64,000 nt of DNA, from NCBI GenBank assembly GCA_964016885.1, contig OZ024740.1, positions 380,990,001 through 381,054,000 of the forward strand, written 5' to 3'. Below are positions 49,166-49,940 of the stretch, piece by piece. A program made the translations under genes and the position numbers. The first letter of the stretch is position 1, and each line of letters begins with the position of its first letter. Source of the stretch: Eledone cirrhosa (Eukaryota). Below the pieces are notes generated by a model that saw nothing but the letters and a program-made list of their open reading frames with translations, did not search any database and had not been told where the DNA came from.

Positions 49166-49940
49166 CTGGCGGCGCACGAGGTGATAAATTCATCTTTCTG
49201 TGTGAACGTTGGCAAATAGTGTTTGTGACATTTAATTGCAATCTCTCGCTGATGAAGCCCAGGATTATCTGTTACAAACACACTCAGGGCGAAACAGATT
49301 AGAGATAATCTGTCCGAGAGATATAATGGTTATTGAGGCGGTTTGTATTATGATAATATATTTTTATTTTCATTTTGTCATCCTGTCTGTTTCTTGGTTA
49401 AATATTTCAAGCATATGTGGTTTTTCAACCCTTGTAATTTTAGACACACGGTTTACTGTGTTTCTTACTATATATTGTTAATCGGCTCAGTATTTATTTG
49501 TACTTTATACTTAGAGCTTAATGGTTACAGGGTTCTAATTCATATATATATTTCGGCTCTCTTACAGGATGAGCTATTAAGTTGTGTGTGTTGGACTGTT
49601 ATTTCTGTTCAATACGCGCTTACCACGTTTGACTGGCGGCGCACGAGGTGATAAATTCATCTTTCTGTGTGAACGTTGGCAAATAGTGTTTGTGACATTT
49701 AATTGCAATCTCTCGCTGATGAAGCCCAGGATTATCTATTACAAACACACTCAGGGCGAAACAGATTAGGGATAATCTGTCCGAGAGATATAATGGTTAT
49801 TGAGGCGGTTTGTATTATGATAATATATTTTTATTTTCATTTTGTCATCCTGTCTGTTTCTTGGTTAAATATTTCAAGCATATGTGGTTTTTCAACCCTT
49901 GTAATTTTAGACACACGGTTTACTGTGTTTCTTACTATAT
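49166..49940 (+). repeat. 1.65 copies of a 467-bp HHR-bearing tandem unit (family H) in (TA)n
   Basis: 49166 recurs at 49633. Confidence 0.9.
49241..49322 (+). ncRNA. Full-length type I HHR (family H); copy 49708-49789
   Basis: AUCUCUCG-CUGAUGA-A-GCCC..GGGC-GAAA-CAGAUUA/UAAUCUG-UC-CGAGAGAU; GUC triplet. Confidence 0.9.

Follow-up and report, generated by a model that had tools for sequence, protein, structure and literature searches.

Three families of non-coding, Penelope-type repeats with a hammerhead predicted to cut itself, which we call H, J and K, have a predicted pseudoknot-type pairing between the 5' flank of the ribozyme and its loop II; the pairing covaries in J, is conserved in H and is present in K. 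Complementarity, conservation and position are established for the three families, and covariation for J and across the families. In our judgement, the chances are about even that the duplex of H, J and K forms a bent two-helix pseudoknot, which would brace stems I and II against each other and thereby speed self-cleavage.

Hammerhead families in the window

The window, that is, the whole stretch of 64,000 nt analysed here, sits in a 3.0-Gb animal genome; (TA)n and remains of Penelope-like elements (PLEs) are abundant. A motif scan detected many type I hammerhead motifs in the window, and an Rfam scan of it gave no match at the gathering score; long loops may be the cause of hammerheads escaping the Rfam models. 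Four pairings had been reported in a first-pass annotation, in families H, J, I and B. All of them are present, letter for letter, at the positions listed below, and each lies inside a type I hammerhead motif, assigned by eye for J and for the 557-nt B copies and by motif scan otherwise. The family copies have the CUGANGA, GAAA and UH core with three stems, stem I being open. The base of stem II is the G10.1-C11.1 pair in H and J, C-A followed by a 6-bp stem in B, and A-U in I. The features are as follows.

Family H
49167..49633, + strand: H repeat unit, 467 nt, non-coding, flanked by (TA)n
to 49935, + strand: second, partial H unit, directly after the first
49219..49230, + strand: 5' flank, outer (distal) helix strand, pairs with 49270-49281
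49233..49237, + strand: 5' flank, inner (proximal) helix strand, pairs with 49263-49267
49241..49322, + strand: type I hammerhead
49241-48/49315-22, + strand: stem I
49249-55, + strand: core, followed by an extra A
49257-60/49287-90, + strand: stem II, with loop II at 49261-86
49291-94, + strand: GAAA
49294-301/49306-13, + strand: stem III, predicted cut after C49314
49686..49789, + strand: second H hammerhead and its flank; one outer pair is lost through G-to-A at 49738

Family J
63574..63652, - strand: type I hammerhead, worn copy with GAAG core (core 63645-39)
63638-35/63607-04, - strand: stem II, with loop II at 63634-08
after 63581, - strand: predicted cut
63653..63673, - strand: 5' flank, outer helix 63673-65 with 63620-12
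63663-53 with 63633-23, - strand: inner helix, 11 bp

Family B
46553..48259, + strand: tandem array of three 557-nt units between (TA)n
46987..47076, + strand: type I hammerhead with 5-bp pseudoknot (46987-91 with 47016-20), C-A at the base of stem II, a hairpin inside loop II and a palindromic stem III
cores at 47557 and 48114, + strand: further B copies
14743..14831, + strand: hammerhead of a second B subfamily (core 14757), identical 5-bp pseudoknot

Family I
63168..63242, + strand: type I hammerhead, palindromic stem III
63168-73 with 63203-08, + strand: weak 6-bp match of flank and apical loop

All four are real repeat families. For the young H subfamily, a genome search with a 23-nt marker gave 348 exact matches. 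A first look at J gave 1193 candidates, which is not a copy number, and the patterns for B and I matched 8262 and 10686 times; backward-pattern controls for the H marker and for the B and I patterns gave none. The best 40 DNA matches for H, I and B were near-identical (98-100%) and of no use for covariation. More divergent copies, taken from pattern searches and hand-picked regions, were grouped at 93%; the resulting sets are enriched for variety and non-random. Local alignment of the H, B and I window units and a J locus (L043) gave z of about 1 or less, with only chance or simple-repeat matches. It had been suggested that four unrelated families share one pseudoknotted architecture. The families are indeed unrelated by sequence, but H and J have in common a design that is absent from B and I, and the single architecture gives way to two, a duplex of about 20 nt in H, J and K and a 5-bp knot in B, with I weak.

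A two-part duplex in H, J and K

The outer helix of H has 12 contiguous bp including one G-U, and a helix of that length appeared in 3 of 1000 dinucleotide shuffles of the flank. Together with the 5-bp inner helix it makes 17 bp at -20.0 kcal/mol, which none of 2000 shuffles equalled in strength and which 0.11% of 4412 window 30-mers reached. In J, a 9-bp outer and an 11-bp inner helix make 20 bp at -25.0 kcal/mol; again none of 2000 shuffles was as strong, and the strength was reached by 0.02% of the 4412 window 30-mers. The first-pass annotation had seen only the outer helices of H and J; the inner 5 bp (H) and 11 bp (J), which adjoin stems I and II, had been missed.

Pattern matches yielded K as a third family, with an equally long duplex of different sequence (8 copies, -15.7 to -21.6 kcal/mol). 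When each flank was paired with the loop of its own family, the three family medians were -14.6, -17.7 and -15.4 kcal/mol, compared with -5.9 to -9.2 kcal/mol across families. The three have in common a stem II of 3-4 bp, a loop II of 25-32 nt and a stem III that is stable and not palindromic; the common start of stem III was part of the pattern by which they were collected. H and K align weakly over the ribozyme (z 3.6). In representatives, the duplex mostly covers 17-23 nt of loop II. It usually begins within 0-3 nt of the tops of stems I and II and has a break near its middle; the return strand has mostly 2-9 nt, with 2 nt or less in some subfamilies. Of the representatives, 16 of 19 in H, all 4 in K and 26 of 33 in J had a duplex z of -2 or lower. 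Among the remainder are copies with a foreign or deleted flank and one J row that is a false hit; three weakly pairing rows (z -0.7, -0.7 and +0.5) belong to one J subfamily.

Such pairing was not a general feature in a wider sample of 1.27 Mb, 400 kb of which were taken at fixed positions and the remainder chosen around the families described here. The sample contained 334 distinct hammerhead-like motifs, which fell into 24 clusters of at least two members and 20 singletons. Among the 24 clusters, a strong flank/loop duplex occurred only in H, J and K (median z -4.8 to -5.4, and 0.3 to 0.7 in windows further upstream). The same test gave z of -0.9 for B and -1.9 for I; it takes the whole interior of stem II, and short knots would escape it.

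With regard to conservation, 84.1% of cells were paired in the diverged H rows versus 28-48% with the partner slid, in an alignment of 15 H rows and 2 K rows, the latter out of register. One middle pair of the 12-bp helix is unpaired in 12 of the 17 rows, and the unbroken 12 bp is peculiar to the young H subfamily; the second H copy of the window has a C-A mismatch at 49738. Covariation is almost absent from H (490 of 500 shuffles, which ignore relatedness, scored as high), and its own flanks paired no better than permuted ones (P=0.63). The loop strand is nearly invariant and the flank varies mostly at middle positions. The loop strand is thus more conserved than pairing needs, a hint of a second constraint.

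In J (16 chosen loci and the window copy), 86.7% of cells were paired versus 36-53% with the partner slid, and 5 of 20 pairs had changed on both sides. The number of such changes is not unusual by itself (198 of 500 shuffles); however, the covariation score, 0.231 versus 0.171, was matched by none of 500 shuffles, which again ignore relatedness, and own flanks outdid permuted flanks (P=0.005). The window copy reads GAAG where 28 of 30 aligned J copies read GAAA. Since the core and stem II of H, J and K are kept beside the duplex, both are likely to be under selection. In J, B, H and K, loop II and the stem I side share at least 4 bp that are conserved or covary, as in the pseudoknotted hammerheads of Perreault et al. 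(2011).

Short or weak pairings in B and I

The 5-bp pseudoknot of B had been described as kept in both subfamilies, and this is borne out: the five pairs hold in 96.7% of cells in 18 diverged copies, and the middle pair changes from G-C to A-U in one subfamily (2 rows, one event), which recurred in the collected copies. A duplex over the whole loop lies within chance in single copies (P=0.15 for the copy at 47000 and 0.06 for that at 14757). In its predicted design, B is an ordinary 5-bp pseudoknotted hammerhead. An alternative register, in which the flank meets the 3' side of loop II with 8 bp in one copy, was rejected, being paired in 75% and showing no both-side change.

The pairing of I, 6 bp at -3.0 kcal/mol, is at chance level in the window copy (P=0.24-0.31). 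Among 38 flank/loop variants, at least 6 bp were found in 12 and 4 bp or less in 18, and own pairs were slightly ahead of permuted ones (-1.9 vs -1.3 kcal/mol). An extension of the match to 8-9 bp was discounted, as it competes with the stem II hairpin of I itself. Family I would carry at most a weak, optional pseudoknot. The first-pass annotation had proposed covariation as a check and had made its proposal depend on pairing being conserved among copies. J covaries, B supplies one compensatory change and H almost nothing; pairing is conserved in H, J and B, and in I it is weak.

Carrier repeats and mobilization

The units of H (467 nt) and B (524-571 nt) are tandem and non-coding and have one type I hammerhead each. 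The 467-nt spacing accounts for 20 of 28 H tandem spacings, and 19 of 56 H loci and 23 of 66 B loci contain copies in both orientations. The 3' ends of H are fixed at +161 and +237 from the predicted cut (76 nt apart) and that of J at +187 (21 copies), with scattered 5' starts in both. The pair of H end sites, observed in window 49167-49935 and L191-L260, resembles the PLE tail signature. Fixed 3' ends, scattered 5' truncation, an inverted partner and (TA)n targets are traits of PLE-like insertion, and together with the non-coding units they support the earlier assignment of the carriers to PLEs or retrozymes.

PLE- or LINE-like protein matches were found near 22 of the 103 contexts of H, 10 of 58 for J, 19 of 111 for B and 5 of 62 for I (these contexts overlap), at scattered distances and on either strand, and no consistent PLE reading frame adjoined the H, J, B and I copies in the contexts examined. 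Coding PLE ends in the sample carry a minimal hammerhead or none matching the search pattern. Within 900 nt of the listed endonuclease 3' ends, hammerheads of the H, J, B or I type occurred at one J and one I locus only: the J locus (L043) sits behind a minimal hammerhead and the I locus (L073/L074) is an inverted pair, and we read both as later insertions. Overall, the carriers fit non-autonomous, PLE-mobilized retrozymes, and their mobilization would probably depend on PLE proteins.

We also looked for copies that begin at the predicted cut. The cut-site C was lacking in 7 of the 348 H matches, and none of these begins exactly at the cut; the test is blind to starts behind a chance C. No run recorded as RNA came up among the sequencing runs searched; three contig runs contained subfamily variants and a 467-nt go-back joint that is explicable by tandem DNA, and gave no evidence of expression. 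For B, the test was swamped by subfamilies (L318-L347) in which one extra G in the 3' strand of stem I leaves a 5-bp stem. This was the case in 28 of the 30 loci read, and these subfamilies make up most of 631 among 2742 matches. The other two loci (L338/L339) are one inverted junction centred on the predicted B cut. Reading these subfamilies as having a GUG triplet proved wrong. Neither the sequencing runs nor the ends of the copies yielded evidence of cleavage in cells.

Folding, geometry and possible function

In nested folding, the H duplex displaces the ribozyme fold (-25.3 vs -22.8 kcal/mol) and the probability of stem II drops to 0.04; it should be noted that such a model cannot hold duplex and ribozyme fold together. 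With both helices formed, the short return strand has to span 55-62 A of A-form helix. In a crude phosphate-only model, without stem I and with minimal excluded volume, no trial closed the loop with a straight duplex stacked on stem II (best gap 38 A vs a reach of 32.5 A), a tilted straight duplex closes rarely (0.04-0.2% of trials, and not at all with a 2-nt return strand), and a duplex bent at the central loop closes in 0.5-6% of trials. Because the bend allows closure in the model, a bent brace would be possible and would account for the interruption in the middle of the duplex.

The bracing pseudoknot might work as follows. During transcription, the flank and loop II would pair first, and stem II, stem III and stem I would close afterwards. 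The inner helix (about 5-11 bp) would occupy the place of known hammerhead pseudoknots, and a bend of the duplex at the central internal loop would let the short return strand (mostly 2-9 nt) reach stem II. Stems I and II would then be held side by side, and the repeat transcript would be cut faster. In B, an ordinary 5-bp pseudoknot could do an equal job.

The main alternative, which we consider rather unlikely, is to read the same duplex as a lock: it would hold stem II open in a single copy, and tandem copies would cut through a helix-II-swapped dimer, to which one copy contributes its 5' half (the core with its stem I and stem II arms, exposed in the hairpin loop) and the following copy the 3' half that pairs with it. 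It would then stand in for the palindrome of helix III as the device that limits cutting to multimeric transcripts. Consistent with this, nested folding favours the duplex over stems I and II, some subfamilies have a return strand (2 nt or less) that is too short to close a straight duplex, and H is often tandem; stem III is non-palindromic and stable in H, J and K and palindromic in B and I, which are without the long duplex, and control by helix III dimers has been described for metazoan hammerheads (PMC4209133). However, a bend at the central loop removes the steric need in the phosphate model, J is seldom tandem (2 spacings in 53 loci), our literature search found no natural helix-II-swapped dimer, and the correlation with stem III is based on five families. 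That the 20-nt duplex represents a new hammerhead control, leaving a lone copy uncut and letting tandem copies cut by a strand swap in helix II, seems unlikely to us; if true, three families with no clear sequence similarity would have another natural way, next to the helix-III palindrome, of restricting cleavage to multimeric retroelement transcripts. PLE hammerhead dimers were reportedly treated by Lunse and co-workers in 2017.

A role in the life of the element rather than in catalysis, with the duplex forming after or instead of cleavage as a 3'-end hairpin of the cleaved RNA or as a docking site of the Penelope protein, is in our view improbable. The upstream cleavage product would end in the duplex and stem III, the H loop strand is conserved beyond the need of pairing, and for an Anolis PLE it has been described that the hammerhead cut only in the presence of the element's protein and that cleavage was dispensable for insertion in vitro (PMC11167929). 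Nevertheless, inserted copies stop at fixed 3' ends that are 161/237 nt (H) and 187 nt (J) downstream of the cut and not at the duplex, whose register relative to stems I and II is tight, and folding of the cut-to-cut H monomer, linear or circular, completed the duplex in neither form. It is very improbable that the match between flank and loop arose by accident or goes back to an ancient inverted duplication that was copied with the repeat. Inverted copies are frequent at insertion, as the 19 H loci with both orientations illustrate, and I, and B by itself, are within chance in single copies, but three families keep the pairing in different letters and in one register, with compensatory changes in J, and the comparison of own- and cross-family pairing largely refutes this reading for H, J and K.

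Comparison with known hammerheads

In natural hammerheads, stems I and II have to be held next to each other, which a helix can achieve (PMC3088659; PMC10085705). Pseudoknotted hammerheads had been taken to be mostly microbial; they are not restricted to microbes, as shown by Perreault et al. (2011, PMC3088659), who reported them in types I-III, estimated their share at about 40% of all representatives, described a 5-bp case in the human C10orf118 intron, and who demonstrated disruption and rescue. As in B, H, J and K, Watson-Crick pairing between the stem I side and loop II replaces loop-loop contacts in their examples, and the 5-bp knot of B has the size of the human one; the examples described there have 4-6 bp (Dataset S1/Figure S4 may hold longer ones), whereas the two helices of H, J and K together comprise about 17-20 bp and take up most of loop II. 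In the PK hammerhead of PDB 8YDC (Zhan et al. 2024, PMC11300833), a pseudoknot helix of loop II likewise organizes the fold. In that ribozyme, the helix has 6 bp and stands in for a stem II of 1 bp, and loop II pairs with a stem-loop (helix IV), whereas H, J and K retain a stem II of 3-4 bp and have an open 5' flank as partner. The families examined here, with a stem II of 3-6 bp and an open flank as partner strand, are thus not of the 8YDC type.

The repeats resemble metazoan non-LTR retrozymes, which are tandem, non-coding, PLE-derived or PLE-moved and carry one type I hammerhead per unit; units are about 380-570 nt here versus 220-390 nt there (Cervera and de la Pena 2020, PMC7229834; Li, Clavereau and Pollet 2026, 10.64898/2026.07.22.740005), and the word "pseudoknot" does not occur in the main texts of these two articles. 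The minimal metazoan PLE hammerheads of Cervera and de la Pena (2014, PMC4209133) are type I, have an extra nucleotide after A9 as in the families here, and have a palindromic helix III, matched by B and I; H, J and K differ from them in a stable helix III and a loop II of 25-32 nt. In vitro activity of PLE hammerheads is often described as low or protein-dependent (PMC4209133; PMC11167929). A search of titles and beginnings of abstracts, mainly of open-access papers, found no long flank/loop II duplex in animal retroelement hammerheads, and the two-part duplex of H, J and K is longer than the hammerhead pseudoknots that we found described in these sources.

Should about 35 nt of flank act on the ribozyme as a brace or a lock, rates measured on RNAs cut back to stem I would be misleading, and the functional unit would escape standard search descriptors. 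A two-turn brace, if true, would widen the known range of hammerhead tertiary contacts, and a lock released in tandem would be a new way of timing cleavage. H, J and K provide three natural sequence sets of one two-helix design, with which a few short RNAs could decide between bracing and locking; B and I add little beyond known short pseudoknots.

Other hammerhead-bearing sequences

Several further elements were observed in the window and the sample. Window 9868-14294 holds a near-complete PLE (reading frame pieces at 10071-13690, weak reverse transcriptase match in Pfam) between two repeats, each with a minimal hammerhead (cores 9868 and 13972); a third copy of this repeat lies at 52783. The 3' part of another PLE (16499-19302), with the end of the reverse transcriptase and a GIY-YIG domain at 18248-18916, has a minimal hammerhead at 19221 and an inverted copy at 16580. 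The region behind a PLE-like endonuclease frame at 51286-52290 is without a canonical hammerhead core, as are six relatives (76-96% identity) within 900 nt; two stretches within it, each of about 130 nt, resemble each other, and the region may contain a non-standard ribozyme.

Another hammerhead family with palindromic stem III (L090:1900 on the + strand, L086, L105 and L183) shows by eye a 6-7-nt match of flank and loop II, which competes with a long stem II (z -0.7). A motif at window 31908-32023 combines a stem II interior of about 95 nt with a palindromic stem III and has a relative in L135. Finally, window 32895-33293 is a perfect 198-nt inverted repeat with one minimal hammerhead motif per arm (cores 33051, - strand, and 33137, + strand).
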